64,000 nt of DNA. It comes from a virus. Shown piece after piece: positions 19,318-59,043 of the stretch (position 1 is the stretch's first letter; each line of letters starts with the position of its first letter). The stretch is taken from the IMG/VR virus record IMGVR_UViG_3300042867_001113; one strand, 5' to 3'. The notes under the pieces are model-generated. The model was not told where the DNA came from and ran no database searches. It saw nothing but the letters and a program-made list of their open reading frames with translations. The position numbers were made by a program, and so were the translations under genes.

Positions 19318-19524
19318 GTTGCCTCCGTGCGGGAACCATCCCGCGTGCTGGAGGAGTAACACCGATTTCCACGGCTTCACCGTGCGGTTTTTGACGACGT
19401 CAACCCAGAGAAGAGGGGTTGAACGCTCACTCCGGCAGCCGCGTGGTCAGGGCTGGCTTCGGCCACCGTGTAGTTTTCTGCTCATCAGTATGGTGAGGGT
19501 TGAGATGCCCTCACCATGCCTTCA

Positions 19525-19959
19525 TCAAACGCCTGAAAAACCGCGCGCTCGGGGGGCAAACAGCGGGCAGTCCGCAGCGCCCGATGACGAGAAGTAGCAG
19601 GGACGCCCGTGCTGATGAGACGACGTGCAGACCATCGGAGGTCCACCGTCTTGGCGAACCATGTGCGCGAAGTGCTGGCAGACATGGTTGGTGGGTTGGC
19701 GCACCCCGATCTCGACGAGCTTGAGCGGCGGGGGAGGAGATGGAGGCGGAACGGGTCGGTCCGACAGGTCGCGCTTGCGGTCGCTCACGTCCAGTTGACG
19801 GAACGCTTCGTCCATCACAGCGGGAGCAGCACGGAGGTCGCCTCGAAGGCGCTTGCGAGCCCATTCTGCCAACGAGATTCCTTCGGCCTTGGCTGCCAGA
19901 GAGAACTCATCGAACTCAACCTGAGAGACCGGAACCGTGATTGCTTTTTTCTTTGTCAT
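19525..19959 (-). CDS. ribbon-helix-helix-like protein with C-terminal Cys/His cluster
   Basis: AITVPVSQVEFDEFSLAAKAEGISLAEWARKRL. Confidence 0.55.
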   Translation of the reverse strand: MTKKKAITVPVSQVEFDEFSLAAKAEGISLAEWARKRLRGDLRAAPAVMDEAFRQLDVSDRKRDLSDRPVPPPSPPPPLKLVEIGVRQPTNHVCQHFAHMVRQDGGPPMVCTSSHQHGRPCYFSSSGAADCPLFAPRARGFSGV

Positions 19960-20177
19960 CCATCGTCCTTCGGAGAGCCATCGCCAAGCGGCGGCAAGCC
20001 AACCTTGGCGCGGAGGTGATTCTTGAGCACTTCGCACGAGTCGTAGTTGCTGCACTCTCCGCACCCCGACACCCCGCGCCGGTACTGGCACTCAAGGATG
20101 TGTTGATCTTCAGCCTCCGTATCCGGAGACTTCTTTTCCCGAAACTCGACCGTCGAGAGGATCTCACGGAACGTCAT
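19956..20177 (-). CDS. small Cys-rich protein
   Basis: C...CGEC....C; GGAGG SD. Confidence 0.55.
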   Translation of the reverse strand: MTFREILSTVEFREKKSPDTEAEDQHILECQYRRGVSGCGECSNYDSCEVLKNHLRAKVGLPPLGDGSPKDDG

Positions 20178-20213
20178 GTCTCCCCTCCCGTAACAGGGTT
20201 GCGGAAAACTTGC

Positions 20214-21041
20214 TCAGAAGGGCACCGACCCCCGCCAACCGGGCAAAACCAAGTAGAGGTGCTTCTCAAGGTCTTGAAGACGTTCTTGGACCATCTTCTG
20301 CTGCTCCAGCTGTGTCCGACTCAGGCGCTTCCCGTGCAGATCCCACTCCTCGAACAGCTCATAGGTCCGAGGCCAGTGCTGCTTCACGATCTCGGCGACA
20401 GCGTTGGCATAGACCCGGATCTCCTGCTGGGCGTTCGGCGCCATCCGCAGGCTGAGGAAGTGCAACCAGTTTCGCAGGTTCCCCTTCACGCGCATCTGTG
20501 TGTAGCGCGAGACCGGCGTGTTCACGCGTGCGACTTCGCGCACAAGTCCGAGTTCAAGTGAGTTCTCGTATCGATCGTATATCTCCTCTTGCTCGTTGCG
20601 GAATCCGCTCTGCAGCGCCCCGGCGATGTGGGGGTCGAGGGGTTCCAGCGCGGAGCCCTGCTTGTTCGTGTCCGACTGCCTGACCATGCGCTCCAGCGGG
20701 GGCACGTAGTGGAGGTTCGGCATCTGGGTGTAGCGCGCGGACAGCTCGTTGTAGGAGAGGGTCCGGTGCCTCATCCACTCACGCGCCACGAAGATCGGCA
20801 GCCGCACCTCGATGAGCAGATCGCACATCTCGAACGGGGTGTGGTGCCCTTCGCGATAGAGGTAGGTCAAGAGGCCGAGGTCGCCCTTGGGGTGGTCCGG
20901 GTAGGGCTCCCACGAGACGAAGCCCCCGCTCGTCGACATACGAGCGGCCTCGATGATGGACTCTTCGGCTCCCATCCAGTCAATCAGTTGAACGTAGCCA
21001 GCATCGAGGACAGCAGTCCGGTCATTTATCTGCAAAGGCAC
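20214..21041 (-). CDS. thyX: flavin-dependent thymidylate synthase
   Basis: H.TPFE, REWMRHRTLSYNELSARY, NLRNWLHFLSLR, AQQEIR. Confidence 0.95.
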   Translation of the reverse strand: MPLQINDRTAVLDAGYVQLIDWMGAEESIIEAARMSTSGGFVSWEPYPDHPKGDLGLLTYLYREGHHTPFEMCDLLIEVRLPIFVAREWMRHRTLSYNELSARYTQMPNLHYVPPLERMVRQSDTNKQGSALEPLDPHIAGALQSGFRNEQEEIYDRYENSLELGLVREVARVNTPVSRYTQMRVKGNLRNWLHFLSLRMAPNAQQEIRVYANAVAEIVKQHWPRTYELFEEWDLHGKRLSRTQLEQQKMVQERLQDLEKHLYLVLPGWRGSVPF

Positions 21042-21102
21042 CTCTCAAGGCACCTGAGCATGACCTCTCTTGAGGAGCAAGGCTCTTCAAGAGAGCCCCG
21101 TC

Positions 21103-21360
21103 TCACCGAGGTGCTGCCTTTGACGCTGTCACGGTCCCCGAGATCAGAGGCTTTCCCCTCGCCGCTGCAGCGAGCGACGCGGCTTTGTCGAGGTTGACTG
21201 CCAGCGTGTTGAGGACGGCCCCCGTCGCTGCAAGCTTCGGAGAGATTTCGCGTCCCTCAAGCTGCCGGTGTCGGATGGTGGTGTTGAAGAGACTTGCCGC
21301 CATCGACAGCAGCGGGACCAAAGCTCCTGCAAGAGCGAGAACGTGTTCCAGACTTTGCAT
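21103..21360 (-). CDS. small membrane protein (holin-like)
   Basis: N-terminal hydrophobic helix; GGAGG SD. Confidence 0.4.
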   Translation of the reverse strand: MQSLEHVLALAGALVPLLSMAASLFNTTIRHRQLEGREISPKLAATGAVLNTLAVNLDKAASLAAAARGKPLISGTVTASKAAPR

Positions 21361-21408
21361 GATAGACCTCCCCCGCGATGCTGTCATGGTGGGGGGAGGT
21401 TGACCATT

Positions 21409-21714
21409 TCAGATAGTGCTGGAGGTCTTCCCGCGCTCTGCGAGCGTGATGGCGATGAAGTTGCGCTGCAGCTTGATGCCCTTCAGGGTGTCCGTGTACG
21501 GACCCTTTGCTTGGGCGAGACGCTCCTTCAGGTCGATCACAACCTTATCTTCCTCCAGAGCCTCCTCGGTGTCCGTCTCGTGGGAAGCAAGCCGCGTGAG
21601 GCGGTCTTCCAGCTCTTGCACAGAGCTGCTCAAGATAGCGTCGACGACGACGTCGGTTACCTTCTTGCGAAGCTTCTTCTCGATCTTGACCTTGCGGGTG
21701 TCGGTGCTTGTCAT
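21409..21714 (-). CDS. coiled-coil hypothetical protein
   Basis: AGGAG SD; GTTAC upstream. Confidence 0.65.
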   Translation of the reverse strand: MTSTDTRKVKIEKKLRKKVTDVVVDAILSSSVQELEDRLTRLASHETDTEEALEEDKVVIDLKERLAQAKGPYTDTLKGIKLQRNFIAITLAERGKTSSTI

Positions 21715-21782
21715 GCGATCTCCTGTTGAGGCGGATGTAACACGACTTCTGAAGCTTCAACGCCACTTCGATTGAACTGCTC

Positions 21783-21813
21783 AAAAGAAAGAAGGCCCCA
21801 TGAGGGGCCTTCT
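21783..21813 (-). terminator. intrinsic terminator after tail-like gene
   Basis: AGAAGGCCCC-TCAT-GGGGCCTTCT followed by TTCTTTT on the minus strand. Confidence 0.75.
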
Positions 21814-21833
21814 TCGAGCAGGACTTCAGAGCC

Positions 21834-24086: not shown

Positions 24087-24123
24087 GTGAAGAGCCTACT
24101 TTCAGTTGGAGGATGGACTGTAG

Positions 24124-24396
24124 ATGAAGCGGACGGTGCTAGACGCGCTCGAAGCGAGGGTCTGCGTCGAGGAGCAGAAGAGACAGCCCATCGACAAAGT
24201 CGAAAGGAACCTGTTCACCGATCGGGAACCCCGTAGGGCTCTCCAAGATGGTCGGAATCCCGTCCATCTTCGGGATGCAGAACTTCTTCGTCGGGCCGTA
24301 GCTCTCGACAAGACTGGGACGAGGAGGTTCACCGAGGTACTTGAAAAAAGCCACGCAGACTCCAAGTGTGAAGACACAGGCATCGTAGAGCAGTAG
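24124..24396 (+). CDS. hypothetical protein
   Basis: Divergent ORF with upstream GGA; no recognised motif. Confidence 0.4.
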   Translation: MKRTVLDALEARVCVEEQKRQPIDKVERNLFTDREPRRALQDGRNPVHLRDAELLRRAVALDKTGTRRFTEVLEKSHADSKCEDTGIVEQ

Positions 24397-24436
24397 AAAG
24401 AAAACACACACACCCTTGCGCGGTTGACAAAGACGA

Positions 24437-24682
24437 GTGCGGCGAGATGTGAAAGGCAAAGTGACCTACCTGAAGGCCGTCTGTTCAACTTGTCTTGGTG
24501 TGGACTTCCTTCACCCGCCTCCGCATGAGGATCGCGACTCAGTCGTATGCCCTGACTGCACGCGAGTCATTCCCTTGAAGCAGTCTGTCCGGGTGGAGCG
24601 CCACTCCGCGACGCGAGGCATGTCTCCCCCAGAGTTGATCCCAACGCCCCGTCACAAGCGGGATGGAGTTTTCCGTGGCTAA
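24437..24682 (+). CDS. small zinc-ribbon protein
   Basis: CSTC...CPDC; start uncertain. Confidence 0.5.
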   Translation: MRRDVKGKVTYLKAVCSTCLGVDFLHPPPHEDRDSVVCPDCTRVIPLKQSVRVERHSATRGMSPPELIPTPRHKRDGVFRG

Positions 24683-25100: not shown

Positions 25101-25122
25101 CACCTGTGTTACCGGAGTCGTT

Positions 25123-25835: not shown

Positions 25836-26714
25836 CTGACACACAGTCCGCTCTGGAAGAGCTTCACGGTCGGGCAAAGTTGCTGCTCAAGCAGTCCAAG
25901 AAGGACCAGCTTTTCCGGCTCAAGCAAGCCGAGGCGAAGAAGCAAGCTGCTGCAGGGAGCTTGTTCATCGAGCTTGCAGAGGCGGTCTCGGACCTCGAAG
26001 ACCAGAAAGACCATCTCACGACCGCAGCCTCCTGCTTCGCTCGGGCGAAGCGGCTGTGCCGGGACGTGATCCGCCAGAAACCGGAGCCCACATGTCCAAC
26101 CGAGTGACCTCGTTCGTCGTGACCCTCAAACATGACCTGAAGGAAGAGGACGCTCGCAAGTTTGCCGAGGCGATCTCCCTCTTCGACGGGGTGCTGAGCG
26201 TCGAGCCAGTGGAGGCCGACTTCTTCACCGAGCAAGCGACAATCGCCCGCGTGCGTGGGCGGGTCTACGAGGCGCTGGCCGAGGCTTTCGACCCGAAGAA
26301 GTCCCAGAAGAACGGCTGATTGGCCTGTTACACCCCGAAGAACCCGACGAATCGGGCTCTGAAAGACGGTGCATCATGGGCATTGAAGACGACATCCGCG
26401 AGTTGCGGTCGAAAGTCGAAGAGCTGGCCTTCCTGTTCTTGTCGACGTTGAGCGACCAGCAGATCGCCACAAGCGGAATGAGCACCGAGCGTCTGAAAGA
26501 CGTCATCTCGGATCGTGCGGGGACCAGCTCTTTCCGGCTGGATCCTCAGTGGTCCGAGCACGGCACCTTCTTGGTGGCATCCGGCGTTCGCGGCTGGGGT
26601 AAGGGCCAATCCACCGATGTGCGCCCCGTGCCTCAGTCGGTGGTCGACTACTGCGCGAAGCTGGAAGCCTTCGGATTGAAGATCAAGATCGAGAACCCGG
26701 AGCCTCCAAAGTGA
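25832..26714 (+). other. three small hypothetical CDSs (25832-26107, 26092-26319, 26376-26714)
   Basis: Closely packed co-oriented ORFs. Confidence 0.55.
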
Positions 26715-31648: not shown

Positions 31649-31858
31649 TCAGCGCGAGCGCAGGAGCTTGATCGCCGTCAGCACCTCGTCGAGGGTGACG
31701 TGCGACGAGCCCAGCAGGCTCTCGTCTCCGAGCCAGAAGTCGACCTCGACGTCCTTCGGCGACGAAGCTTCGAGGTTGACGGATTCGGTGACCCGACTGC
31801 CGCTGCTCAAGCGCTGGAAGGTGACAGTGAGATCGGGGTCGGTCTTTTCAGTGGTCAT
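31649..31858 (-). CDS. hypothetical protein
   Basis: ATG overlaps the end of the upstream gene. Confidence 0.5.
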   Translation of the reverse strand: MTTEKTDPDLTVTFQRLSSGSRVTESVNLEASSPKDVEVDFWLGDESLLGSSHVTLDEVLTAIKLLRSR

Positions 31859-32234
31859 TGAGGACTCGTTTCTTGGTGGTGGTGGTGCGAGCGAGCTTCT
31901 GTTCAGCGCCGAACATGACGCTCCAGATCTCGCCGTAGAGGTGAGCACGATCGTAGCCCTGCACCTTGCCAACCATCGTCTTGAAGTTCGAGTAGTCGAC
32001 GTCTTCGGACATCAGCGCAGCGACCTTCGCCCACTGCTTCTTCCCGACGAAGATGCGGTAGGGGTAGTCGGAGTGTTTCTCGATAACGACGTCGGGCATG
32101 TCTGGGAAGTAGAGCTGGTGCAGGCTCTCGAAGTCAGCGAGGACGCGGGTCCGGACACACACCTCGCCGACGCCTCGGCCTTGGGACTTTTTATCGACGA
32201 CGCTGAAGAATCCTGCACGGGTGAAGAGCCACAT
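31848..32234 (-). CDS. conserved phage hypothetical protein
   Basis: MWLFT..GF.SVV...DYPYR...VDYSNFK family pattern. Confidence 0.7.
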   Translation of the reverse strand: MWLFTRAGFFSVVDKKSQGRGVGEVCVRTRVLADFESLHQLYFPDMPDVVIEKHSDYPYRIFVGKKQWAKVAALMSEDVDYSNFKTMVGKVQGYDRAHLYGEIWSVMFGAEQKLARTTTTKKRVLNDH

Positions 32235-32344
32235 TTCTCGATCCTGCCTTCTGCCTCTCGGCGGTACCGCAAGCGTGCGGTAGACGAGATGTAACTCACG
32301 TTTTGGAAGTTTCAGATCCGCTCAATTGAACTCAGAGGTCTGAC

Positions 32345-32572: not shown

Positions 32573-32711
32573 TCGCTCGAAAGTGATCAGACGGGACCAT
32601 ACGGTCCTGAAAAAAGGTCGCAGATCTGCCCGTTTTCGAGAGAAGCCGGATCCGGTTTTGTGGCTTCGTAAAGCCGTTTTTTCACGGTCACCATGGCACT
32701 GAACGCAAGTG

Positions 32712-32739
32712 TTGACTCCGGCTCGGATCGCGTTATGAT
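32712..32739 (+). promoter_or_regulatory. sigma70-type promoter upstream of the sigma-factor gene
   Basis: TTGACT-N16-TATGAT. Confidence 0.75.
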
Positions 32740-32793
32740 GGGCGAAGAAAGTCCGGGCACCCGATGGATCGGGTCCACGCGACGGAGGCAGCC

Positions 32794-33441
32794 ATGACGA
32801 CCCAGAAGACCCGCGCCGAACACCAGACCCCCAAGTTCGGCATCACCTACAACGACGCGATGAAAGAGGCGATGACGATCGCTGCCCGCGCCGCGCGTCG
32901 CCACCACAAGTGGGTGTCCTGCGGGAGCGACAAGGACGACCTGCTCGCAGCCGCCTACGAGGGAATCCTCCTCGCTTGGAAGGCGTGGAAGGGCCCCGAA
33001 GTGGTCTCGTGGTCGTTTGCCGCGTGGACCTATGCGGAGCTGTACGCTCGCCGCGAGGGGAACCGCCGCAAGTCCGTCGTGAGCACGGGCAGCGGCAGCT
33101 ACTCGCTGCACAAGGGCCGTCAGGCGGTCCGTGACGACGCCCTGCTGATGCAGAACGAGGACGGGGCTTGGGTCGACGCTGACCTCAAGGACGAACGCCC
33201 GCTTCCCTCCCAGCAAGTCGAGATGATGGAGACCCTCCGAGTGATCGGGGTCGCCCTCCGCGAAGCGATCCCCACTTGCGCGGGAGAGCAAGTCGCCCTC
33301 GCCCAAGACGTGATCACCCAACGTATTCTGATCGACGTTGCCCAGAGCGCGGCCAGCATCGCTGACAAGCACGGGGTGAGCAGTGCGACGGTCTACAAGG
33401 TTGAGACCGCGCTGCGCGGGGCCTTGCAGGCTGCTCTCTGA
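32794..33441 (+). CDS. phage-encoded sigma70-family factor
   Basis: Region 2-like DDLLAAAYEGILLA...W and region 4 HTH SAASIADKHGVSSATVYKVE; GGAGG SD. Confidence 0.7.
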   Translation: MTTQKTRAEHQTPKFGITYNDAMKEAMTIAARAARRHHKWVSCGSDKDDLLAAAYEGILLAWKAWKGPEVVSWSFAAWTYAELYARREGNRRKSVVSTGSGSYSLHKGRQAVRDDALLMQNEDGAWVDADLKDERPLPSQQVEMMETLRVIGVALREAIPTCAGEQVALAQDVITQRILIDVAQSAASIADKHGVSSATVYKVETALRGALQAAL

Positions 33442-33526
33442 ACGACAGCGGATCCGGGTGAAAAACCCGGATCCGAGTTACTCAACCCTCAGAGCGGGAT
33501 GGTTCCCGCCTACACAGGAGACGCAG

Positions 33527-33814
33527 ATGAACAAGAACAATACCGTCCGTCGCACCCTCATCCAGAACGTCGTCGCCCCCTCGATTCATGGCGCACTTGC
33601 TGCGGTCCCCGGGCTCGACCTCAACCGCGAAGAGGATCGACGCCGCACGATGCGCGCGACGGTCCACACCGTCGCCGGTCTCCTGCTGGAGAAGGGAGCC
33701 AACCCCAACGAGCTTCTGCAAGCCTGCATCGAGGCGATCTCGAAGGAGATGGAATCGCTGCAGGCGCAGCACGAGGGTGACGGCACCTTCCCACAGGCTG
33801 GAGCCAACGCCTGA
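33527..33814 (+). CDS. hypothetical protein
   Basis: AGGAG SD, leader hairpin and GTTAC upstream. Confidence 0.65.
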   Translation: MNKNNTVRRTLIQNVVAPSIHGALAAVPGLDLNREEDRRRTMRATVHTVAGLLLEKGANPNELLQACIEAISKEMESLQAQHEGDGTFPQAGANA

Positions 33815-35451: not shown

Positions 35452-36624
35452 TCAGAAGGGGAGGACGGTTGGCTTCTCGGGGACGTAGGGGGCGGGTGCT
35501 TTCGGCAGGTTTATGACCGGGGTGTGCGAGGTGATCATCGTCTGCTTCACCGCCGCCGCCTTTATAGCCGCCTTCGATGCCGCCGCTGCGTCAGCGAGAG
35601 CTTGCGCGTTGTCGACATGCTTCATCACGCTCGCCATGTCTGCGCTGATGGCCGCGACGTCGATGTAGGTCGGGGTCTTCTTGTAGACCTGCGTGATCAG
35701 GTCTGTGACCTGAGGAAGGTAGCTCGCGTCGCACATCCACGCCTTCGTTGCGGCGTCCCAGCTTCGATCCTTGTAGGGGATCATGTTCTTGAACCCCGCG
35801 ATGAATGTCGCGTCGTAGGGCGTGTTGATCTTCAGGCTGTTCCCGTTCTTCTCGATTCGGCAGGTGGACACGGGGCCTCCGGGTGCTGGGGTTGCCTGCA
35901 CTGTAACAGGCGTCAGCGTCGGCTTCAGTACCGCCGAGGTTGCGAGGAAGGCTTCCACCTCGACACGAGCATCCGCCAGTCCGACGGACATTGGGTAGTG
36001 CGTCTGGACGATGGTGGCGAAGGCATCGAGGTGCTTCGGGTCAACACCGAACATCCGACGACCCGGTTTCGGAGAGGGGAAATTCACCGCGCCAAGACTG
36101 TGGAGCTTATGACGTGCTGCTGGGCAGCGGGGACCGTCGACGAAGATTCGAGGGCCCTTTGATGTGAGGGGGTCGAAACGGACCACGGCATCCCCAGTAG
36201 CTGCCTCGCCGTTCCAGAGAGCCGCGACACCGAGGTACCCGAGCCATCGAGCGACTTCAGAGCAGGCTTTCAGCACCTTCCAGCGGGTGCTGTCGTAGCT
36301 CAGGATCTTCTCGATCTTGCGGATCGCGATGCGCCAGTCTGTCCCGTCGAGGTTCAGCGTGAGCATGCCGAGCAGGTCGGCATACGTTGCTTGCGCGTCG
36401 GGGGTGATGCTGGTGTCGGGGTTGATTGTCAGGAGCGCCATGAGCGCCTCTGGAGGGTTCGCTGGGATGCTGTTCGCGAGGAGCTTGTTGTCCTGCTTCC
36501 GGCAGATAGGACCGATGCCCGCCTCGATGGAGGCCATGTCCGTCAGGTCTTTCCGACACCGGCAGCACGATCGGCCTGTGTGCGACTTGAACTGCGGGGC
36601 GACATTGCTTGTGTTGATGTCCAT
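35452..36624 (-). CDS. DUF6011-like zinc domain + HARP-like domain protein
   Basis: C.RC.K.LTD..S...GIGPIC at the N-terminus; PYD..FI..FK..IP...R.WD...KAW near the C-terminus. Confidence 0.7.
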   Translation of the reverse strand: MDINTSNVAPQFKSHTGRSCCRCRKDLTDMASIEAGIGPICRKQDNKLLANSIPANPPEALMALLTINPDTSITPDAQATYADLLGMLTLNLDGTDWRIAIRKIEKILSYDSTRWKVLKACSEVARWLGYLGVAALWNGEAATGDAVVRFDPLTSKGPRIFVDGPRCPAARHKLHSLGAVNFPSPKPGRRMFGVDPKHLDAFATIVQTHYPMSVGLADARVEVEAFLATSAVLKPTLTPVTVQATPAPGGPVSTCRIEKNGNSLKINTPYDATFIAGFKNMIPYKDRSWDAATKAWMCDASYLPQVTDLITQVYKKTPTYIDVAAISADMASVMKHVDNAQALADAAAASKAAIKAAAVKQTMITSHTPVINLPKAPAPYVPEKPTVLPF

Positions 36625-36813
36625 CGGGTGCTCCTCCGAAAACCGTTCCGGTGATGCTGATGTAACTCGTGATCGTCAGATCCGTTTTCTGCGCTCGTAT
36701 GAACAACAGCCGTGCTGGACCGTAGAAAACTCATGTTTCCGCGAACCTTGAGGTGATTCCCGCTGAAGACTGGGGCCGCAGATCATGCCCCGAGGGGCAG
36801 GGGGTTCGGACAT

Positions 36814-36855: not shown

Positions 36856-37027
36856 ATACAGCCCCGATCCCCGTACATCGCGTCCGGAAGCCATTTTCAC
36901 GGGTGATCACCAGATCTGGGATCGAGCAATATCTTTTTTTGAATTTATTTTCGCGCAGATCACCGCGTTCGGAAGCCGTTTTCCGCGCAGATCCGCAGAT
37001 CAGTTCATTTGAACTCGGACGTGACTG

Positions 37028-37055
37028 TTGACTTCAACGCGGCTGGTGTTATGAT
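37028..37055 (+). promoter_or_regulatory. sigma70-type promoter
   Basis: TTGACT-N16-TATGAT with extended TG. Confidence 0.75.
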
Positions 37056-37093
37056 GATCTCACGGCACGGATGCCGCACCGAAGGAGCCCGCC

Positions 37094-37294
37094 ATGATCG
37101 CCATCGCTACTGTCCTCGCCACTGTCCCCAGCAGCAGCAACCCCGAGGTGGTCTACACGATCAAGCGCGGGGCCGACGGCAACGTCTACTGCAGCTGCCC
37201 CGCGTGGAAGTTTCAGAAGCTCAACCCCGCGCAGCGCACCTGCAAGCACCTCCGCAACCTCGCCGCCAGCATGAAGCAGCACGCCGCGAAGTGA
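37094..37294 (+). CDS. SWIM zinc-finger protein
   Basis: PSSS....Y.I......CSCPAW...CKHL. Confidence 0.8.
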   Translation: MIAIATVLATVPSSSNPEVVYTIKRGADGNVYCSCPAWKFQKLNPAQRTCKHLRNLAASMKQHAAK

Positions 37295-37380
37295 GCTGCA
37301 GCTGCCCCGCGCAACGCAGCCTCCCCCGGTCAGCCCGGGGTTCAGGCGTAGCGGCACGGTTGCCGCGCAAGGAGCAAAAC

Positions 37381-38132
37381 ATGCGAACCCCCAAGACCAC
37401 CAAGCTTCAAATTGTCGAACGCGCCACGGGCGTGGTGCTCGACGCAGACGCTGCCCCCACAGCGTTTCTCTGCGCCAAGGGTGGACCCGCCGTCAAGCGT
37501 GATGGGTGCTGGTTCGAGACTCGCTACGAGGGGTTCGAGGTGCGCGACGGCGAGCAGATCTACGACGTCCGGGTCCGCGCCACTCGCGGTTGAACTGAAG
37601 TTACTTCCCTCCCACAACCCGGCACGAATGCCGACTTGGAGAATGTCATGAAAGCCGTCATCGGAAACACCTTCCCCGTGAAGGAGCAGATCAAAGCCCT
37701 CGGCGGTCGATGGGACGGCATGAAAAAGTGCTGGAACGTCCCTGACGAGAAGTTCGATGCCGCGATGGCGCTCGTCACAGGAGCGGGCCCGAAGGGCAGC
37801 TACGTCGCCTCGACAGGCTCGGTGCGCGCCGCTCCCCGCCCATCGAAGGGGTGGCGACCCTGCGGCTACCCGGGCTGCAACAGAGCGCACTGCGATGAGT
37901 GCGATGGAGCCGGGTTCTACGGATGACGCTCGATTGGATTGCCTGCAATGTCTGCGAAGACGACGGGTTCGTTTGGATCCCGTGCGTCCGCTACAGCACC
38001 GCGCACTGGCGCCGGAAGGGCGAATCGGAGTTTTCCATTGTGAAACACCGCGAGCGCTTCCGCTACCCGTGCGAATGCGCGCGCGGTTCGGCTTGGATCG
38101 AGGACCAAAGACGAGGCAAGGATCCTGACTGA
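37381..38132 (+). other. three small CDSs (37381-37593, 37648-37926 DUF5710-like, 37923-38132)
   Basis: SD motifs; GNTFPVKEQIKALGGRWD...W in the second ORF. Confidence 0.6.
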
Positions 38133-39004: not shown

Positions 39005-39168
39005 AGCAGCCCAAGCTCAGGACGCGTTCCTACGTCGCTCGACAGGCGTGGGACCGGGGAGGTGCTGGTCCGCATCGGGATCAGAAGGCTCATGCGAAGC
39101 GGCGGGCCTGCAGGGGCCGCGTCACAGCCGACGATTGAGGACCATACGGGCCTGTTACTGGACTGGGT

Positions 39169-40332
39169 ATGAAGCATCCGAAGTACCCTCTGTATATGGA
39201 AGGCGACCCGTCTCCGGTGATGCCTGACGGCGCGACACTCTGGACGAAGCCGGAGGTGACGGACAAGCCAGCGATGTCCTACGAGCGGGTCGACGGGTCG
39301 AGGCTCATCAGGACGATCGGCGACCTCTACCGCTACACGCAGCATCTGATCGGGGAAGGGTTCAAGGGGAACCCCCGTCCCGGCGTTCTGGACATGGACC
39401 GGAACGAGATCCTGCTGACGCTCGGCTCCATCAGCGCGCACAGGAACGCGAAGGACTTCGGCATCGACGACATGGCGTTGACTCCACGAGAGGAGATCGC
39501 CCGAGACTCGTCCATCCTGCACCACTGGCAGCATCATCGCTGGGATGCCAACGGGCGCTTCATCTACGACCTCACCGTCGAAATCGCCCAAGCCTTCCTC
39601 GATACAGACCTCACCGTCGTCCCTGAAGACATCGCTCTCCCTGAGAGCACCTGCTACATCGCGGTCCCCGCAAGCCTTGGCTTGAAGGTGTGGCACGCAG
39701 CCACCGGCTTCCACGACCTCGATGGCTTCTACGTCACGCTCTCCGACGAGATCTTCACCATCGTCGCTTGTGGCTTCGCTCAACCGGGTCGCCCCAGCTA
39801 CGACAACGCCCTCGCATCCTTTACCTTCGCCAGCTTGGGGAAACAGACCGTCGCTGAGTGGATTGCAAAGGAAGAACTCGATCCAGTCTCGACGAAGATC
39901 ATGGGGCCGAACGCAGCCCAAGTTCCCATCTGGACTCGGCTCGTCGTCAACGCCCTGCTCTACATCAGCAACGTCCGCGAAGACGTTCGCCACGACGTGG
40001 ACTACGGTGTGCCCTCCAAGAAGATAGAGCACGCGAAACGAATCCAAGGGCGTCGCGTTCGTGAGAAGTACCTGAGCGAGTGGCGGGTGCGCTGCCGCTA
40101 CCACATCCTCGGCGAAGCGGTGCAGAAGGCTCTTGGTTCCTCCACAGGCGGGACCAGCGTCGAGGGCACATCCCCGCAGGTGCGCTTCTCTGTGCGGGGA
40201 CACTGGCGTCAGCAGCCTCATGGCCCTCAGAACTCCCTGCGGAAGCTGCTGTGGATCCAACCTTTCTGGAAGGGTGCAGACAAGGAACCATCAGACACAC
40301 CACGGATAACCCATATCGTGAAAGTGGTCTGA
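39169..40332 (+). CDS. conserved phage hypothetical protein
   Basis: C-terminal VRGHWR.Q..G.....RK..WI.PFWKG motif. Confidence 0.75.
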   Translation: MKHPKYPLYMEGDPSPVMPDGATLWTKPEVTDKPAMSYERVDGSRLIRTIGDLYRYTQHLIGEGFKGNPRPGVLDMDRNEILLTLGSISAHRNAKDFGIDDMALTPREEIARDSSILHHWQHHRWDANGRFIYDLTVEIAQAFLDTDLTVVPEDIALPESTCYIAVPASLGLKVWHAATGFHDLDGFYVTLSDEIFTIVACGFAQPGRPSYDNALASFTFASLGKQTVAEWIAKEELDPVSTKIMGPNAAQVPIWTRLVVNALLYISNVREDVRHDVDYGVPSKKIEHAKRIQGRRVREKYLSEWRVRCRYHILGEAVQKALGSSTGGTSVEGTSPQVRFSVRGHWRQQPHGPQNSLRKLLWIQPFWKGADKEPSDTPRITHIVKVV

Positions 40333-49819: not shown

Positions 49820-52800
49820 CTACCGAAGCTGGATCTTTATGTCTGAGTCCACCGGATCAACGTCAGGACTGAACGCGCGGAGCTGAAGCCACTGCGTGTA
49901 TCGCTGGTCGTCAGACATCTGGGGATACGGAAACATTATTGCCGACGGGGCCCATGCTTTTGCCACAGGGAGCCAGAAGGACGTCGCCGGTGAGTGTTCA
50001 GTGCTGTTGGCCTCTACCTTCGTTCCCGCAGCAGCCCGAGCCCCTACCCGGGCGATGCCGAGCGCCGTCAGACCGGGCCAATCGAAGTGGTTGGAAAACT
50101 TGGCCCCTTCCTTCCGGCGACCCCAGAAGGCTTGGGCGATCGGCTTGTTCCGGTCGTCATCTTTGAAGTTCAGCCAGCAGAGACGGCACTCCTCGGCAGG
50201 ACGCCAGAGCGGGCCCTTGCAGGACGCACAAAGGGGGCGGGTGGTGATCGGCACAACCATCAAGCACCAGTCTTCTTGCCGTCCGGGGCAGGCTTCAGCG
50301 CCTTCAGCGCTTTCGATCGCCGATAAGCCCCCTTGTCAAAGAATTTCGTCTCCAACGTGCGCCCCGAGCAGAGCTTACAAGGGCGAAGGTCTTCGTCGAC
50401 ACAAGGTGACCCAGCGTCGGCTCCGCAGTCTTCACAGCGGGCGTAGGCACTGACTGGCGTTCGAGGGACAGGAACGCGGACGGGGTCCGCCTTTGTCTTG
50501 GCGCTGTGGTGGAGTCTCATGACTCCCCCTCCGCCTTCTCCGCACGGGCCTTCAACTCGGCACACTCGCGCAGCACGCGGGTGAAGTCGTCGCCGAGAGC
50601 ACGGGCAGCGGCGTCGGACGTCTCTGCGCGGGCAATGGCGGCGTCACGCTGGGCGTGCATCTGGGCACAAGCCGCCTCCGACTGGCGCCACAGAATCCGA
50701 GCGGCTGCGGCGTCGTCGACGTACATCTCGACCATGCCTGCGGACTTGTCGAGTTCCTGCCCGTAGTTGTCTCGCTCGTTTGTCCGCTCCCTCGCCAGCG
50801 CCTCCGCTGCGTCTCGCTGGATGGTGAGGGAGGCGATGGCGGCGTCACGCTCGTCAAGGGCCGCGTTCAACTGGCGCGACGTCTCGGACCTGATCTCTTC
50901 GAGTCCCTGAAAGTCGGCTGCGCTCCTCCACCTCCCCCGCTCGGCGATGACGTCGGGGCGGGAGAGGATGGCGCGGGCGTTGTCGGCGGCATCAAGGAGA
51001 AACGGCGGCGCCGTCTCGCCGACGTCGCTACACCCATGACGGACCGCGTCGATCAGATCGGCCAACGCCTCCCCCATCGCCGCCACGGTGCGGCTGAGGT
51101 CGTCGGTGCGGGTCTCAATGGCGACGAGCCGCCATGCCTCGGCGACTGCAGCGTCGCGTTCCGCCTTGAGCCCACCACTCGGAAGGAGGGGGCTGTCGGG
51201 AAAACTCCACCTCCGAGCGGTGGTAGGTCGTCCCATGTCTCTATCGGGGTCGACGTTCTCCACCAGAGACGAATCAGGGAACGCGCGCGGGCTTTGGAGG
51301 CGAGCGGCTTCCTGATCTGCCTCTGACAATGTCTCGAAGATGGCGTCGGCCTCCTCAAGGAGGACGCGGTCCTCTTCGGGCCTCCATCCCGGTCTTGCCC
51401 GTTGCTCCCTGAGCTTGTCCAAGAGGCGGCTGTAGTCGGTCATGGTCATGAGGCGCTCCTTCCCTAGTTCGTCAGCCACTGAACGCGCTGACACTTGATG
51501 CACACGATCATGGTTCACCTCCACGTCTGCAGCGTGCGGAGAAGTTCCTCGACGGAGACTTTGGAGAGTTGGAGCAACGCCGCGCGCCGGATTTCAGCTG
51601 CGGTGAACGTCTCTTCGGACGCCGTCGTCTTGGGAGAGACGCCCGCCTTGGTGATGGTGACCTCGTCGTCGAGGCCGGGGTTCGTCTTGTTGCGAACGAA
51701 CTTGATCAGCTCGTCGCGGTCGTCGCACGAGATCAAGATTCGCGGTTCGCCTTCAGGCTCGTCGCGCAGGGCAATGTCACCGACCGCTAGGATTCTCATG
51801 CTCCCTCCGTAACAGGGTCCGTATGGTCCTCTTCGTTCCAGACCAGCTCCCCTGCGGCATTGGTTCCGATCCCCGCTCCTCGCCAAGCATCGAGCCCGGT
51901 CGGGAAGACGCGGATCAGCATACCGAAGTTCGGGGTCCGCACGAGCACGAGCGGCTCCCAATGGGAAGTCGCCCGGGTCTCCAGCACGGAGTTGCAGTGG
52001 TCCAGAAAACTCGGGTCTTCCCGAAGGTGGTCGAGGGCCATCCAGTGCTCCACCGCGTTGATGCTCTCGCCCTCCGCGTCGTACCCTCGATCTTCGTCGT
52101 CGGACCACCGGACTTGCTGGGAGGTCATACCGACCAAGTCGCAGATGGTGCAGCGAGGATCGCTGAACTCGGCGGTCACGTTGTGCGGTCTGTTGAGCGA
52201 CAGCACGCCTCGCTCAGGCATCCTGCAGACAGGGCAAAGGGTCCGATTGCTCATAGGGTCACCGCTTTCAAGGCGTCGTCTTCTTCACGACGATGGCGAC
52301 GTCCGGTGCATTGTTCAGTTCGATGTGGTCGATCGCTCTCGACACGATCCACTTGCTGGACCTCACCCCACAGAGGAAGGCGCTGCTCAAAGCCGGGAGC
52401 ATGGCCCTCGCAGTGGGCTCGTCGACATCCTTCAAAGGGGTGCCGACCTCCTCACCGTTCTTCCGCCGGATGACCACCCGGAAGGAGGGGTTGTTGAGAA
52501 AACTTGACTGCGGGTCCGGTTCGACATGGATCTTGTGCTTCACGTGTTCCTCACTTTGACCGCGCCAGCAGACACAGCAACCGGATATCCTGCGGATGCG
52601 CTTCCGAGGCGGTCACGATTGGACTCGTGCCTTCCTGAGAGCGGCGCGGGCATTGGCGGTCACGAGTTCACCGGCAGTGACAGACTCCAAGGCGATGCAA
52701 AGTTCCTCCAGCGCCTTCACCAAGTCAGGCGCAGCGGCCATGACAGCGGCGTTGGCTTCGGCCTCTTCAGCGGAGCACGTTCGGGGGTCGGCTTCGACGC

Positions 52801-53856: not shown

Positions 53857-54443
53857 TCAGCGCAGTCCCCTCATGATGTCTTCGAGTCGGTCCTCCCCTA
53901 GAGCGAGGAGCTGTCTCTCGGCTGCGACTACAAGGACGGCGCGTTCTTGGTGAGCCCTCAATGGAAGGGTGCAGCTCAGGATGCTCACGATTGCCTGAGG
54001 AGACAGCTCGGCGATTCGTTCTGCGGCTTCCCTCATGAAGTCGAAGACCTCAGCCACCTCCGGCGTTTGGTGGGCCGACAAGCCTGCGTCCTTCCCGGCC
54101 TGCTCCCATGGCTTGGTGAAGATGGTCGTGGCTGCGTCCGCGCCTGCAGATGCCAGACGGACGTCGATCCACTCCAGCACCTCCCGGGCAGTGCGGCGAG
54201 GTGCATTGGACGAAGGCAGAGACGTCAGATGGTCGACGAAGGCTTTGGCGTTCACTTGGTCCCCTCGAAGGGTGGAACGTAGGCGCTGTCGCGCGAGCAC
54301 TCGCTGTCGGCCTCACAGCCAGCTTCCCCGCACTCCCAGCACATGCCGGGGGCCTGCACGTCGTCGCTCACTGCGATGTCGAAGCAGTCGCGGCACGCGC
54401 AGCTCGTGTACCCGCTGCCTCCGGTCTTGGTGGGCTTGCTCAT
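53857..54443 (-). other. two hypothetical CDSs (53857-54255; 54252-54443 Cys-rich)
   Basis: GTTAC 9 nt before 54443; C.C.DC...C.EC..AGC. Confidence 0.55.
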
Positions 54444-54630
54444 GTCAGGGATGTAACAGGCTGGCGACCTATCAGGTGGAGGTTGACTGCCGACTAGGGG
54501 AAAGCACTGAACAGAAAACTAGCACCCGGGGTTTCTCGGGAGGTTTTGAGAGGTTTCTAGTGGGTTTTCAGAGAGGTTTTCTTCAAGGACCACATGGTCC
54601 GTCTAATCCACGTTCACTTGAACGTAGTTG

Positions 54631-54658
54631 TTGACTTCTACGCGCATGGTGTTACCGT
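54631..54658 (+). promoter_or_regulatory. sigma70-type promoter
   Basis: TTGACT-N16-TACCGT with extended TG. Confidence 0.65.
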
Positions 54659-54696
54659 GGGATCACGGCATGGTTGCCGCCACCAAGGAGCGCCAG

Positions 54697-55117
54697 ATGA
54701 GCTACCGCAGCTACTACATCCCGACGGACCGCGAAGAGGACGCCATGCGCGCGAGCGACGAGCGCAACGAGGCCCGCCGCGAGCTGGAAGCGATCCACCC
54801 CGATGACCGCACCGACGAGGACTACCGCAACGCGGGGATCCGTCGGGGCTACAGCGCCCACCGAGAGGAGCGCTGAGATGCTCGCCATGCTCATCCCCTC
54901 GAAGATCGCAGTCGGCGACAAGCTGATGGTGGAAGGAACGCTCCACGAGGTGACCCGCATCGACGTGAAGCGCGACCCACGAACCTCCAAGCGGAAGAAC
55001 GGGTCGCCCCGACTCGGGACCGTGCGGAAGGTGACTCTCCACTTTGATGGCCGGAAGCGCACGCTGTCCCGCCTGCAACGGGTACTGGTTCAGCGAAGCG
55101 AACCTGCGCTCACTTGA
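54697..55117 (+). other. two small CDSs (54697-54876, 54878-55117)
   Basis: AAGGAG / GAGGAG SDs downstream of the promoter. Confidence 0.6.
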
Positions 55118-55559
55118 GCGTGTAGAGTTCGCGCATTGCTTCATCGAACTGTTTCTGGTCAGCGACGCTGGTGCTCAGGGCCACAGCGACGCGGCCCTCT
55201 CGCCATTGCTTGACAGCTTCCGAGAGCAGCTTGCTGTCGACCTTCGAGGTCAGGACGTGCGCGGGCTTCTCGATCACCCACCCGGCGTAGTTGGTGGCGT
55301 CTGGGTCTCGCAGGGTGATGTCCCCGCCTGCATGAACGAGCTGCAGGGCTGGCTGCCACGTAGGGCGGCGGTAAAGCGCGACGTAGGTGCTGCCGTTCCA
55401 GCGAGTCTCGTCGCTCTTCTCAGCCTCTTCAGCACCGGCCTTGCAGGACTCCCAGCCGATCTGCGTCCGCGTCTCCACGAGCTTCCAGTCGTCGGGATGA
55501 GCGGCGAGGCTCGCGATGATGTGCGCGCAGAACGGATCGGGCTTTGAGAACGGCCACAT
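55110..55559 (-). CDS. hypothetical protein
   Basis: GTTAC 10 nt before ATG. Confidence 0.55.
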   Translation of the reverse strand: MWPFSKPDPFCAHIIASLAAHPDDWKLVETRTQIGWESCKAGAEEAEKSDETRWNGSTYVALYRRPTWQPALQLVHAGGDITLRDPDATNYAGWVIEKPAHVLTSKVDSKLLSEAVKQWREGRVAVALSTSVADQKQFDEAMRELYTLK

Positions 55560-55992
55560 GACCCGGGCAGTAACAGAGCTTCAGAAAACTGGTCCTCAAA
55601 CGAAAAAAGCACCGGATTGCTCCAGTGCCTTCTTCCCGTTCTCTTCTGCCTGTCGCGAAACAGGCTTCATCGGACGAGCGCGTCGTTCCGCGCGGTCCCG
55701 ACCTTCCGCTGTCACCGCTCAGGCTTTCACCTGCGAGGCGCGGTCTCTGTCCTTGGCCCGGGTGAGGGGTTCAGGTCGGAGGCCGTTGTGGGGCTTGGTC
55801 GGAGCCCTGTGTCCCGGTCAGCGATTCGGCTGGCTTTCGGTGAGGACCAATCAGGCTTGCGCCGTCTCGAACCATGCCGTCGTCCAGTCCCAGCAGCGAC
55901 CCTCTTGCGAGGAAAACTACCGGGCGACGAGTGCTTTCTCTCATGGGTCCAAGAGAGCGTCAACACTTTTTTTCAGATGGGCCCGTGCTCCT

Positions 55993-56528
55993 TCAGCAGT
56001 TCGGGTCGCACTCGGCGCAGCCGTGGCCGTTGCACACGCCGCAGGGCTCGGGAAGGTTGACGCAGAAGAGCCAGCCCGCGTTCGGGACGAAGACGTAGTC
56101 GCCAAGGGTGAGGGCCTTCACGGCGCGAACCATATGGTCCGTCGCATGTGGCGGGCACAGCGCCTTGACAGTGGCGATCGTCTCGTCGAGGAGGTGTAGC
56201 TGCAGGCGCTTGCGCGGCGCTACCTTGTCGAGGTCGCCTGCGAAGTGGAAGCGCCGTGCGTTCGGGTTGTTCATGCCCAGCCCCCTTCGTGGGCGGCTTG
56301 GTAGCTGGCGCGTTCGGCTTCCCGTTCCATGTAGCGCTCCTCGCAGGCGTCGTGGTCGACGCAAGTGACGGCGAGCACCTCGCGCCGGTCGAGGTCGTAC
56401 TCCCAGAGCACGTCGTGCTTGCGGGTGCCGCAGCACATGCAGGGGTACTGGATGCCCTTGCACACTTCGGTGGCGATGCGCGGGTTGCGGACGATCTTGT
56501 GGGTGTTGCGGTCGAAGGGTGCGTTCAC
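55993..56528 (-). other. two small Cys-containing CDSs (55993-56274, 56271-56528)
   Basis: Downstream of the minus-strand promoter; ATGA coupling. Confidence 0.55.
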
Positions 56529-56585
56529 TTGAGGCTCCGTTGGGCATCCATGCCCGTTGGGTCTCGGCTCGGTTGCCGTGATCTG

Positions 56586-56614
56586 ACTGTAACACGGTTC
56601 ACGGACACTGTCAA
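56586..56614 (-). promoter_or_regulatory. sigma70-type promoter
   Basis: TTGACA-N17-TACAGT with extended TG. Confidence 0.75.
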
Positions 56615-56760
56615 CACAAGAGCACAGATCTAGTTCAATCGAACTAGATCTGCGGGCACGAGGATCTCGGCGGGGCCGCGTGGGCTGTCGGAAAACTGTG
56701 TCGGGCCCTCCAACGGAGCACGAGGCTCCGGGGTGAGGGAGGTTCGGAGGCAGGACTCGC

Positions 56761-57366
56761 TCAGTCGCTGCTGTCGACCTCGCTGTGGACCGTGGCGGTC
56801 AGGTCGCCGGGGTTGCCTGTGACGACGTGGACTTGGCCTCGGGGGTATGCCTTCAGCGCGGCGATGTCGTCTGCCGTCAGGGGGGCGTCGTCGCAGCGGA
56901 CCACCACGTCGGTGTAGACGTAGTAGCAGTTCCCGGCCTGCCCTCCCTTGCTCTGGATCGTTCGGAAGTTGCAGGCGACGTAGCGGCGGTCCTTCGGGTC
57001 GGTGATGCCCGTGGGGCGGGTCTCGATCACTTCGCCGAGGACGTAGGCGTGGGGTTCGCTCAGGGCGAGGGTCCGTCGCGCCTTGTAAGCCGCCCACGCT
57101 GCGTTCTTCCCCGTGATCTGCTTGGGGAGGGCCAGCATCGTTTGGATGCTCTGGAAGGAGGCGCTCCGCTGGTGCCGTTCCTCGGTCAGCTGGTAGGTAG
57201 CCGTCGTGCCGATCTGGGTCAGCGCGATCACGCGGCGGTCCATCAAGGCGTTCGGCGCCGAGAGCGAGACCGTGAAGGTCACCCGGTTTTCGCTCGCGTC
57301 CTTGTGGTGGACGTTGCGGACGGCGGGGGTCTTGAGGGCGGGGGTCTTGGCGGTGTGCGTGGTCAT
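56761..57366 (-). CDS. hypothetical protein
   Basis: GGAGG SD and conserved leader hairpin. Confidence 0.65.
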   Translation of the reverse strand: MTTHTAKTPALKTPAVRNVHHKDASENRVTFTVSLSAPNALMDRRVIALTQIGTTATYQLTEERHQRSASFQSIQTMLALPKQITGKNAAWAAYKARRTLALSEPHAYVLGEVIETRPTGITDPKDRRYVACNFRTIQSKGGQAGNCYYVYTDVVVRCDDAPLTADDIAALKAYPRGQVHVVTGNPGDLTATVHSEVDSSD

Positions 57367-57401
57367 GCGATCCTCCGGGGCGGCATCCGTGCCGTGATCA
57401 C

Positions 57402-57429
57402 AGCATAACACCGCTAGCGCGGCTGTCAA
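57402..57429 (-). promoter_or_regulatory. sigma70-type promoter
   Basis: TTGACA-N16-TATGCT with extended TG. Confidence 0.75.
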
Positions 57430-57570
57430 CAAGCAACCACGGATCTTGTTCATATGAGCGGATCTGGCCGGATCTGACCGTCCGGCAGGCGACTCGCCCA
57501 AGCGGCTTCCGGGCCGGTTTCGGAAAACTGGTCCCGGGCCCCCGGGCGAACCATATGGTCCTCGCCCCCA

Positions 57571-58909
57571 TCAGCTCGGGCGAGAGAGGCCCTTACAGGC
57601 AACGATGGTGCCTGCAGCGTCGCGCACGACTTCACCGGGAACGAGTAGGTCTTTCCGCTCAGGGAGCGCCTGCGCGACCATCAACGAGACGATGAGGAAG
57701 ACCCCGGGCTCTGCGGGAGGCATGTCGACGACGCCACCATAGATGACGCGGTCGACCGGGATGCCATCGACGATGGAGAACTGCATGCGGGTTGACGCTG
57801 TTCTCGGCGTCGGAAAGGTCGGCTCGATTGTCCGGATGGCCTCCTCACCCACGAGGATGCGGACGACGTGAGGGGTGCGGTTGACGAGGGTGGGCATTGG
57901 TCATCCTATCGGCGTGAAATCGAAGTACCGACGTGGCGAGTGAGTGAACATCATCACGCCCTTCACGCCGTCGGCCTTGCGGATGACCGAGACGAAGGGT
58001 GCGAGGAACCCTTGGACTGTGAAGTGCTCTTGCAGTTGCTGGGTGTCGTAGGACACATCCGCGTCAGCCAGCCGCTGCGTGGGGACGTCGCTGTCGATCA
58101 GGAAGCGGCGCGTGGTCTCGGTTGAGTCGGTCATGAGTTCTCCTTGAGTCCTGCGAGGGCCCGACGACACATCGTCGCCACCTCGTCCGTGTCTTTGTTC
58201 CCGCTGATGCCGTCCCGCTGCCACCAGTCGGCGACGGCCTGACACGCCTCCCGTAACGCCTCACGCTCGGCTTTCACCCGTTCGACGTAGGTCTTTCCCC
58301 GATCGAGGACGTCGAGCATGGCTTGGGCGTCAGGGGCGCTCCCGGCGCGGGCGATGGTCGAGAGACGCATCAGCAGGGAGGCGGTGACCTGCGCCCACTC
58401 CAGCTCGGGGAGAGTCTGGATGCGGGCCAGCTCGGCGCGGGCCTCGCGCAGCTCCGCAAGGGCTGCGTCGAGGGTGGTCGGCTCTGGTCGAGGACGCTGT
58501 TCGTCGATTCTCATGGGCTGTCCGCTGGGGTTTCGGGGTGGACTGTTTGTTCGGCCTTCGCCGCTTTCGCAGCGTCGGCGTCTTCGGTCCGGATGGCGCG
58601 CACCGCGCGTTCACGCATGAGCTTCGTGAGCTTCTTCGCGAACTGCGCGTCCGTGGTGTCGCTGACGTTGGTGCTCAAACCGACGTGGGCCCTCACCACC
58701 TCCGCGCTGATGTTGGTCGGGCCTGCGATCATCTCGTACTGGCGAAGTCGCACGATAAAGTCCTCGACATTCTTCGGGGTGATCCCGCCGAGGTCGAGAG
58801 CCATCGTCAGCCAGATGAGCGCGTCGGTGGCGACCCGGATCTCCCCTTCAGGCGTGAAGCACACCGTCTCGTTGTTTTTGACCTTGGTGAAGTCGAAGTG
58901 CAGGGCCAT
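57571..58909 (-). other. four hypothetical CDSs (57571-57897, 57901-58134, 58131-58514, 58511-58909)
   Basis: Coupled operon; N.TPH...IVS..VA and F.V.GF.APFV.V.RK.DG...F.HSPR.YF patterns seen in phage proteins. Confidence 0.6.
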
Positions 58910-59043
58910 GAGGACTCTCCGGGTTGTCGACAGCATCCGTGCTGCACCCCTCCCGTAACTGGCTTGCGCTCCGTTTCGCAGATCCGTTCAAGTGAACAAC
59001 ATTTTACGACTGATGGATCTGCGGATCGAGTTACTGCTGGGGC

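Follow-up and report, generated by a model that had tools for sequence, protein, structure and literature searches.

A 64,000-nt stretch of phage DNA, bases 1353-65352 of the 109,966-bp IMG/VR virus record IMGVR_UViG_3300042867_001113 (hereafter the window), carries short hairpins just upstream of the start codons of a set of its early and middle genes, which raises the question of what kind of element these hairpins are and what reads them. A first-pass annotation of the window had listed 12 of them and inferred an RNA-level regulon coupled to the host protein CsrA/RsmA or a phage RNA-binding protein, naming a phage factor or a 5'-stabilizing role as equally possible. We compared the hairpins within the window and with those of related phages. 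They constitute a genuine family whose conserved element is, on the covariation evidence, an RNA structure with three invariant bases, and the function that we tentatively favor is that of a 5'-terminal stem-loop, adjacent to the ribosome binding site (RBS), that would protect or mark the message.

Identification of the Leader Hairpin Family

All 12 hairpins listed in the first-pass annotation are present exactly at the positions and on the strands reported for them, with no further occurrences in the window. A 13th copy, GCGGCA-CGGT-TGCCGC at 37351 (+), emerged from a census of perfect tetraloop hairpins. Apart from two identical pairs that had already been recognized, every hairpin sequence is unique in the window. 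All 13 copies are in sense orientation, each followed by a start codon 11-30 nt downstream, and are given below (SD, Shine-Dalgarno sequence; ORF, open reading frame).

19329..19344 (-): GCGGGA-UGGU-UCCCGC; 11 nt after GTTAC (19356-19360), 177-aa gene (18784-19317), with its ATG 11 nt downstream
26343..26356 (+): CCCGA-CGAA-UCGGG; 11 nt after GTTAC (26327-26331), 112-aa gene (26376-26714), with its ATG 19 nt downstream
32265..32282 (-): UACCGCA-CGCU-UGCGGUA; 8 nt after GTTAC (32291-32295), 128-aa gene (31848-32234), with its ATG 30 nt downstream
32759..32774 (+): ACCCGA-UGGA-UCGGGU; leader of the probable sigma gene (32794-33441), ~15 nt after the predicted transcript start
33494..33509 (+): GCGGGA-UGGU-UCCCGC; 12 nt after GAGTTAC (33477-33481), 95-aa gene (33527-33814), with its ATG 17 nt downstream
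36636..36651 (-): CCGGAA-CGGU-UUUCGG, one G.U pair; 10 nt after GAGTTAC (36662-36666), SD directly 3'; gene for a 390-aa DUF6011 protein (35452-36624)
37063..37076 (+): CGGCA-CGGA-UGCCG, predicted +2; 66-aa SWIM zinc-finger gene (37094-37294), with its ATG 17 nt downstream
37351..37366 (+): GCGGCA-CGGU-UGCCGC; 70-aa gene (37381-37593), with its ATG 14 nt downstream
37620..37633 (+): CGGCA-CGAA-UGCCG; 15 nt after AGTTAC (37600-37604), 92-aa DUF5710 gene (37648-37926), with its ATG 14 nt downstream
54666..54679 (+): CGGCA-UGGU-UGCCG, predicted +2; 59-aa ORF (54697-54876), with its ATG 17 nt downstream
56542..56555 (-): GGGCA-UGGA-UGCCC; ~25 nt from the predicted transcript start; 85-aa Cys-rich gene (56271-56528), with its GTG 13 nt downstream
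57381..57394 (-): CGGCA-CGGA-UGCCG, predicted +2; 201-aa gene (56761-57366), with its ATG 14 nt downstream
58930..58945 (-): GCAGCA-CGGA-UGCUGU, outer pair G.U; 9-10 nt after AGTTAC (58955-58959), 132-aa gene, with its ATG (58909) 21 nt downstream

In the predicted fold of the sigma leader, the stem is extended. The hairpin at 58931 stands as originally described, and the start of the gene downstream of it has been corrected to 58909. A minus-strand gene call at 54652-55062 was dropped for plus-strand ORFs, the plus-strand ORF having a third-codon-position G+C content (GC3) of 0.90.

The hairpins occur in clear excess over their random frequency. In the 73-nt sense-strand leaders of the 164 predicted genes (stem of at least 5, G.U pairs allowed), there are 17 A-NGNN-T hairpins against 2.7 +/- 1.6 in dinucleotide shuffles (maximum 9 in 500); the antisense strand of the same leaders has four. 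A-closed tetraloop hairpins in general number 13 in the intergenic 10.6% of the genome vs. 24 in the coding 89.4%. The best 13 matches of a covariance model of the family (R1) are exactly the 13 sites (18-26 bits; next match, 14.8), and a model trained on the relatives only recovers the same 13 (16.7-25.2 bits; next match, 15.2). A covariance-model scan of the other 46 kb of the genome yielded no copy and nothing above 11.6 bits. The leader enrichment, the covariance-model matches, and the empty 46 kb together establish that the family is real, strand-specific, and confined to the non-structural region at 19.3-58.9 kb. No Rfam 15 family matches anywhere in the window at gathering score. The best non-member match of both covariance models (~15 bits) is CCGGA-CGGTCAGA-TCCGG, a hairpin with an 8-nt loop at 57465-57488 (-), upstream of the promoter at 57429.

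RNA Structure and Invariant Loop Signature

The hairpins were compared with those of seven related metagenomic phages. Four of these are IMG/VR contigs identified with the sigma and DUF6011 proteins as queries (79-86% nucleotide identity), and three are further metagenomic contigs from a protein database, with sigma proteins 82, 53, and 48% identical to the one encoded here. The resulting alignment contains 40 copies, 36 of them distinct, with a common architecture of a 5-7 bp stem, a closing A-U pair, and an NGNN tetraloop, that is, a hexaloop A-N-G-N-N-U. Among the distinct copies, 95% of the cells are paired and five of the six stem pairs are altered on both sides. The covariation score of 0.61, compared with 0.14 in shuffles, was reached by none of 500 shuffles and is lost when the partners are slid. 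The wobbles, with six independent events counted, are all G.U or U.G on the sense strand, with zero A.C. Because of the covariation and the restriction of wobbles to G.U and U.G on the sense strand, we interpret the conserved element as an RNA helix and not a DNA palindrome.

The compensatory stem change that had been noticed originally is evident both within the genome and between orthologous sites. For instance, the sigma leader differs in relatives G001-3 by two compensatory pair changes (C-G to U-A and A-U to G-C), and the leader of the gene after sigma (hairpin 33494) changes from GCGGGA to GCGGCA with a matching change in the opposite arm, giving GCGGCA-GGGU-UGCCGC in L034 (a G-C to C-G swap); its L038 orthologue has the loop CGGU. 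The DUF6011 leader changes from CCGGAA/UUUCGG to AGGGCA/UGCCCU (L034, AGGGCA-UGUC-UGCCCU), and elsewhere among the relatives it has the loop CGGA and longer stems. The hairpin is kept, with entirely different stems, even in relatives whose sigma protein is merely 48-53% identical. At other sites, orthologues of hairpin 19329 have the loops UGGC and CGGU, one of them with a G.U pair; those of hairpin 32265 have CGUU, GGGU, UGGU, and CGGU, with U.G wobbles; the G001/G003 orthologue of hairpin 37351 carries a G.U pair; and the G001 orthologues of hairpins 26343 and 58931 have the loops CGGA and GGUU, respectively.

Three columns are invariant in the 36 distinct copies, namely the closing A, the closing U, and the G at loop position 2 (stem-A-NGNN-U-stem). 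By parsimony count, at least 20 changes have occurred between orthologous sites at loop positions 1, 3, and 4, and zero at A, G2, and U; the stem pair next to the closing pair flips freely among C-G, G-C, and A-U. The closing A-U pair could drift to G-U or G-C with the helix intact, yet it never does, which points to selection on something more than the stability of the helix. The fixed A, G, and U suggest that the loop is also read by one putative binding factor.

Promoters and Leader Architecture

Five hairpins are located downstream of host-type promoters of the form TTGAC(A/T)-N16/17-TAYNNT, four of which have an extended TG.

32712..32739 (+): TTGACT-N16-TATGAT, upstream of the sigma gene; sigma-70 scan, 10/12 consensus matches; kept in relatives
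37028..37055 (+): TTGACT-N16-TATGAT with extended TG; sigma-70 scan
54631..54658 (+): TTGACT-N16-TACCGT with extended TG; read from the sequence; same cassette as 37028 and 57429
56586..56614 (-): TTGACA-N17-TACAGT with extended TG; sigma-70 scan
57402..57429 (-): TTGACA-N16-TATGCT with extended TG; sigma-70 scan

The statement of the first-pass annotation that all five TTGAC promoters have a hairpin is borne out, with the particularity that at 56542 the family hairpin is the second one, ~25 nt from the predicted start. The first, CGGC-AACCGA-GCCG at 56565-56585 (-), is of a different type and stands at the predicted +1 of transcription from the promoter at 56614, with 9 nt between it and the family hairpin. 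At 37063, 54666, and 57381, the distance from the end of the -10 hexamer to the hairpin is exactly 7 nt. Seven further copies are found 8-15 nt after a bare (T/A)GTTAC, and the hairpin begins 8-12 nt after GTTAY in nine copies. Since no promoter element is present just upstream of hairpin 37351, we regard this copy as intercistronic.

GTTAC is also found in front of at least 12 genes, eight of them without an SD, at a distance of 9-10 nt from the start codon; the window positions are 4331, 11131, 25108, 28745, 39154, 48293, 49817, 51813, 54457, 55574, 59030, and 61586. This start-proximal set looks like a promoter class for leaderless mRNAs, and, given the spacing to ATG in these mostly SD-less genes, transcription is predicted to start ~10 nt after GTTAC. 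By this geometry, the hairpin is predicted to begin 0-3 nt from the transcript start (+1 to +4) in ~10 copies. The leaderless sites are mostly TGTTAC and the hairpin-led sites mostly (G)AGTTAC, and there may be two promoter flavors, leaderless and hairpin-led. Downstream of the hairpin, a mostly C/A-rich spacer of 0-15 nt leads to a strong SD, which is GGAG or GGAGG in nearly every case (26343 has only GACGG). In predicted folds, the hairpin persists (-4 to -10 kcal/mol) and the SD is free of pairing.

A stretch of ~45 nt, GGTGTTAYnnTGnGATCACGGCA..., is common to the modules at 37063, 57381, and 54666, and partly to that at 56593. In the relative G001 (around 2460-2500), this cassette, with the loop GGGU, directly precedes a gene whose product contains MLAM(I/L)IPSKI; here, it precedes the 59-aa ORF (54620-55120). 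As a different gene follows in G001, the promoter-hairpin cassette behaves as a portable unit. Searching IMG/VR for the cassette pattern returned nothing beyond the relatives already known. Another case is the AcrVA2-like gene, which is leaderless here (GTTAC-N10-ATG, 39154-39171), whereas in L034, the relative with the 53% identical sigma protein, it has the hairpin leader GAGGCA-CGTT-TGCCTC and an SD (16180-16240); leaderless and hairpin leader types thus interchange at one gene.

Two kinds of DNA palindrome accompany these promoters. GTTCA-NN-TGAAC palindromes are located just upstream of promoters at 37000-37020, 57440-57455, 56625-56650, 54610-54625, and 58985-59000, often with GGATCTG nearby, and also occur in relatives; the one at 56623-56654 is inside an inverted repeat with a 14-bp stem. 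They look like operators of a DNA-binding regulator. A dispersed palindrome, GGACCATAYGG, lies beside GTTAC promoters or gene ends at 39135-39150, 51825-51840, and 57545-57560.

Proposed Role in Message Protection

Starting from what is directly observed, i.e., the structure, the conservation, the strand, and the position relative to promoter motifs and start codons, our preferred though still tentative reading is that the hairpin is a 5'-terminal, RBS-adjacent stem-loop that protects the message, with predicted transcription starts, a presumed stabilizing effect, and a putative binding factor. The hairpin would be transcribed as the first structured element of 13 early/middle messages, 0-15 nt upstream of a strong SD. 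With a stem at its 5' end, such a message would offer no single-stranded end for pyrophosphate removal of the RppH type or for 5'-end-dependent RNases, and it would be stabilized while the SD remains free; the loop, through its fixed A, G, and U, could additionally be read by the factor. RppH requires at least two unpaired 5' nucleotides (PMC3997798), and 5'-terminal stem-loops stabilize mRNA in Escherichia coli and Bacillus subtilis (PMC3997798, its references 93-95 and 109). The proposal fits a phage whose other messages are leaderless, because a naked 5' tail would then exist in neither class.

Several observations weigh against this reading. Three copies are off the predicted 5' end, namely 37351, which has no promoter upstream, 56542 at ~+25, and 32760 at ~+15, and the starts themselves are predicted from promoter geometry. 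A plain stabilizer needs no set loop or closing pair, which leaves the invariant A, G, and U unexplained. Five additional leaders that are driven by GTTAC and comparable in length lack a 5' hairpin, so that the hairpin marks a subset of genes and does not follow a general rule for leadered messages. Finally, all 13 copies are RBS-adjacent vs. ~10 that are start-adjacent, and RBS adjacency fits translational control at least as well. Because stabilization explains neither the loop signature nor this difference in numbers, we give substantial weight to an operator for an RNA-binding factor.

Alternative Explanations

In the foremost alternative, which we consider less likely, the hairpin would serve as the operator for a regulator distinct from CsrA, a sequence-specific RNA-binding factor of phage or host origin, which would recognize the A-N-G-N-N-U loop beside the RBS and set the translation or decay of a 13-gene regulon including sigma. 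It would account for A, G2, and U being invariant in the 36 distinct copies while their neighbors vary freely, for the position of all 13 copies 11-30 nt from a start codon, including those away from the predicted transcript start, and for the presence of the hairpin on only some leadered genes. The early genes also encode several small zinc-binding or Cys-rich proteins, possible nucleic-acid binders, that are hairpin-led or neighboring.

37094-37294: 66-aa SWIM finger
37648-37926: DUF5710 protein with a C-terminal zinc ribbon
54252-54443: 63-aa Cys-rich protein
56271-56528: 85-aa Cys-rich protein

However, no known RNA-binding family was found among the 87 window proteins (Pfam, PHROGs), nor was an arginine-rich N-like peptide; no binder can be named, and a loop with just one constant base besides its closing pair conveys little information to a specific protein. 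If true, the factor, a small phage protein or a non-CsrA host protein, would control, at the RNA level, when expression passes from the host type to the phage type.

The original proposal, in which host CsrA/RsmA binds the loop and the GGA of the SD and thereby represses or times the translation of early phage genes, is improbable. CsrA/RsmE binds with high affinity to an ANGGAX hexaloop carried by a stem (PMC4005645), and the phage hairpins share this geometry, the A, and the first G; in five window copies, the stem-borne loop agrees with ANGGAX exactly, upstream of a GGA-containing SD. As had been reported, the copies at 37063, 57381, 56542, and 58931 match CANGGANG. GGA loops are present behind four of the five host-type early promoters, and nearly all SDs contain GGA, ~12-22 nt from the loop. 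The SD is not discriminating for CsrA, though, because any strong SD contains GGA, and the linear motif CANGGANG is not rare (67 matches vs. 48 +/- 7 expected). The GGA core is missing in 8 of the 13 window copies and in 26 of all 40 (present in 5 and 14, respectively), and it swaps between orthologous sites (CGAA/CGGA, CGGT/CGGA, and CGGA/GGTT). In the sigma leader, the loop is UGGA or CGGA in the seven closer genomes and AGGU in the most distant one (L038). Conversely, the closing U, which CsrA does not require, is invariant. Nor are the GGA copies all independent, since three of them come from a single duplicated promoter cassette. CsrA (PF02599) was not found in the five phage records searched, a candidate structured RNA at 55.6-56.0 kb contains no CsrB-like multi-GGA sponge, and the numerous leaderless genes argue against a typical gammaproteobacterial host. 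CsrA/RsmA binding is therefore not supported as a property of the family, as GGA is confined to a minority of copies and is not kept between orthologues, although, given a host with CsrA, the five GGA copies would probably be bound. What survives of the first-pass annotation is an RNA-level element in early/middle leaders, including that of the probable sigma gene, with compensatory stem change and a fixed closing A-U pair, without CsrA as the common denominator; the evidence favors its fallback, a phage factor or a 5'-stabilizing role.

More improbable again is that the hairpin is a functionless hitch-hiker in a duplicated mobile promoter-leader cassette, or a DNA palindrome for a dimeric protein. 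Such duplication would explain the ~45 nt shared by modules 37063, 57381, and 54666 (and partly 56593) and the different gene that the cassette precedes in G001. Yet the stems differ between sites by double compensatory changes that include transversions, the G.U wobbles are on the sense strand only, and the same genes are still preceded by the element in relatives of ~50% protein identity, where the stems are new and the A/G/U signature is unchanged; half-sites so different would also be unacceptable to a sequence-specific DNA binder. The covariation largely refutes both forms of this explanation.

The least probable of the explanations weighed is a nut/boxB-like element, i.e., a nascent hairpin that recruits a factor to RNA polymerase and confers resistance to termination. 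Boxes of the lambda type have a 5-bp stem and a small loop, are transcribed soon after early promoters, and are read as RNA. The phage hairpins are of the same size class, are transcribed right after early promoters, and are repeated at the head of transcription units. However, their NGNN tetraloops are of another class than the GNRA-like pentaloop, the 13 sites are far above the number in known nut systems, and neither an N-like arginine-rich protein nor, in the window, the boxA-like CGCTCTTA and TGCTCTTTA were found (GCTCTT core matches beside the hairpins were not checked). Intrinsic-terminator-like sites are not enriched in the hairpin-led regions (7 vs. 6.4 expected and 2 vs. 4.4 expected).

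A number of other candidates were rejected: a sigma-54 promoter (wrong GG-to-GC spacing), an N4-type hairpin promoter (no virion RNA polymerase, and GTTAC at a fixed upstream distance), a sigma-dependent pause element (wrong A-N4-T spacing), an RNase E site (RN|WUU; G2, W4, and U fit, the A does not, and the site would then be inside a tetraloop), AGNN (Rnt1p) loops (C or U predominates at loop position 1), a TadA-type UACG loop (its U is absent here), and anticodon mimicry (no coherent anticodon).

Comparison with Known Systems and Significance

The function proposed above, message protection by a 5'-terminal stem-loop, has its models in stabilizers such as the E. coli ompA and papA leaders and the B. 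subtilis aprE leader, which block 5'-end-dependent decay (PMC3997798). The phage hairpins would resemble these in the ~10 of 13 copies that are predicted, from promoter geometry, to be start-adjacent. They differ in that the known stabilizers, of which the T7 phi10 leader is a further example, are single occurrences without a common loop or closing-pair signature, whereas the phage hairpins form 13 copies with an invariant A-NGNN-U, three of them off the predicted 5' end.

Among phages, the closest parallel to a motif repeated near start codons is the SAS/ESAS system of cluster K mycobacteriophages, comprising a fixed 13-nt SAS that overlaps the SD and an ESAS for which its authors found little support as an RNA hairpin (PMC3203893). 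Both are phage-specific repeats that are restricted to the non-structural half of the genome, are situated immediately 5' to start codons, and recur at the same gene families in relatives, and the function of SAS/ESAS is likewise not known (PMC3203893). In contrast to the phage hairpins, in which sequence varies and pairing is conserved, SAS/ESAS is defined by sequence without RNA covariation. The 13-nt SAS consensus GGGATAGGAGCCC has no match in the window, loosened pattern included.

Cis-acting 5'-leader hairpins as such are already known; the family described here is a new cis-regulatory RNA motif with unusually good comparative support and an unexplained loop signature. It is absent from Rfam, and the covariation is good enough for it to be registered as such. 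If the favored reading is true, one small RNA module gives a defined set of early/middle genes, including sigma, a protected or regulated 5' end while other genes are leaderless. The same module would be a compact portable expression cassette, already found before different genes in relatives, and the phage would offer a clean natural system for studying how 5'-end structure, leaderless initiation, and a loop-specific factor divide the control of a phage program among them.

Genome Context

The virus record is ~84% complete, with a G+C content of 61%. A megablast search of 20 kb against 50,697 deposited phage records gave zero matches, and no close relative was thus found by this route. The genes recognized in the window include those for replication (DnaB, primase, a UvsX-like recombinase, and a helicase) and for nucleotide metabolism (ThyX, dCMP deaminase, dNMP kinase, and MazG); the majority of the small genes at 19-62 kb are orphans. 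No tRNA genes were found. The DnaB protein has just 29% identity to that of Pseudomonas PaMx31-like phages, and in one scan of genome contigs the sole match of the thaumatin-like protein (40%) was cyanobacterial. The gene at 32794-33441 encodes a probable phage sigma factor, a 215-aa protein with zero tblastn matches whose language-model neighbors are phage sigma-70 r2/r4 proteins. A terminator-like hairpin with a T7 tail, at window positions 32653-32677 (+), lies directly upstream of the promoter of this gene and is kept in the relatives.

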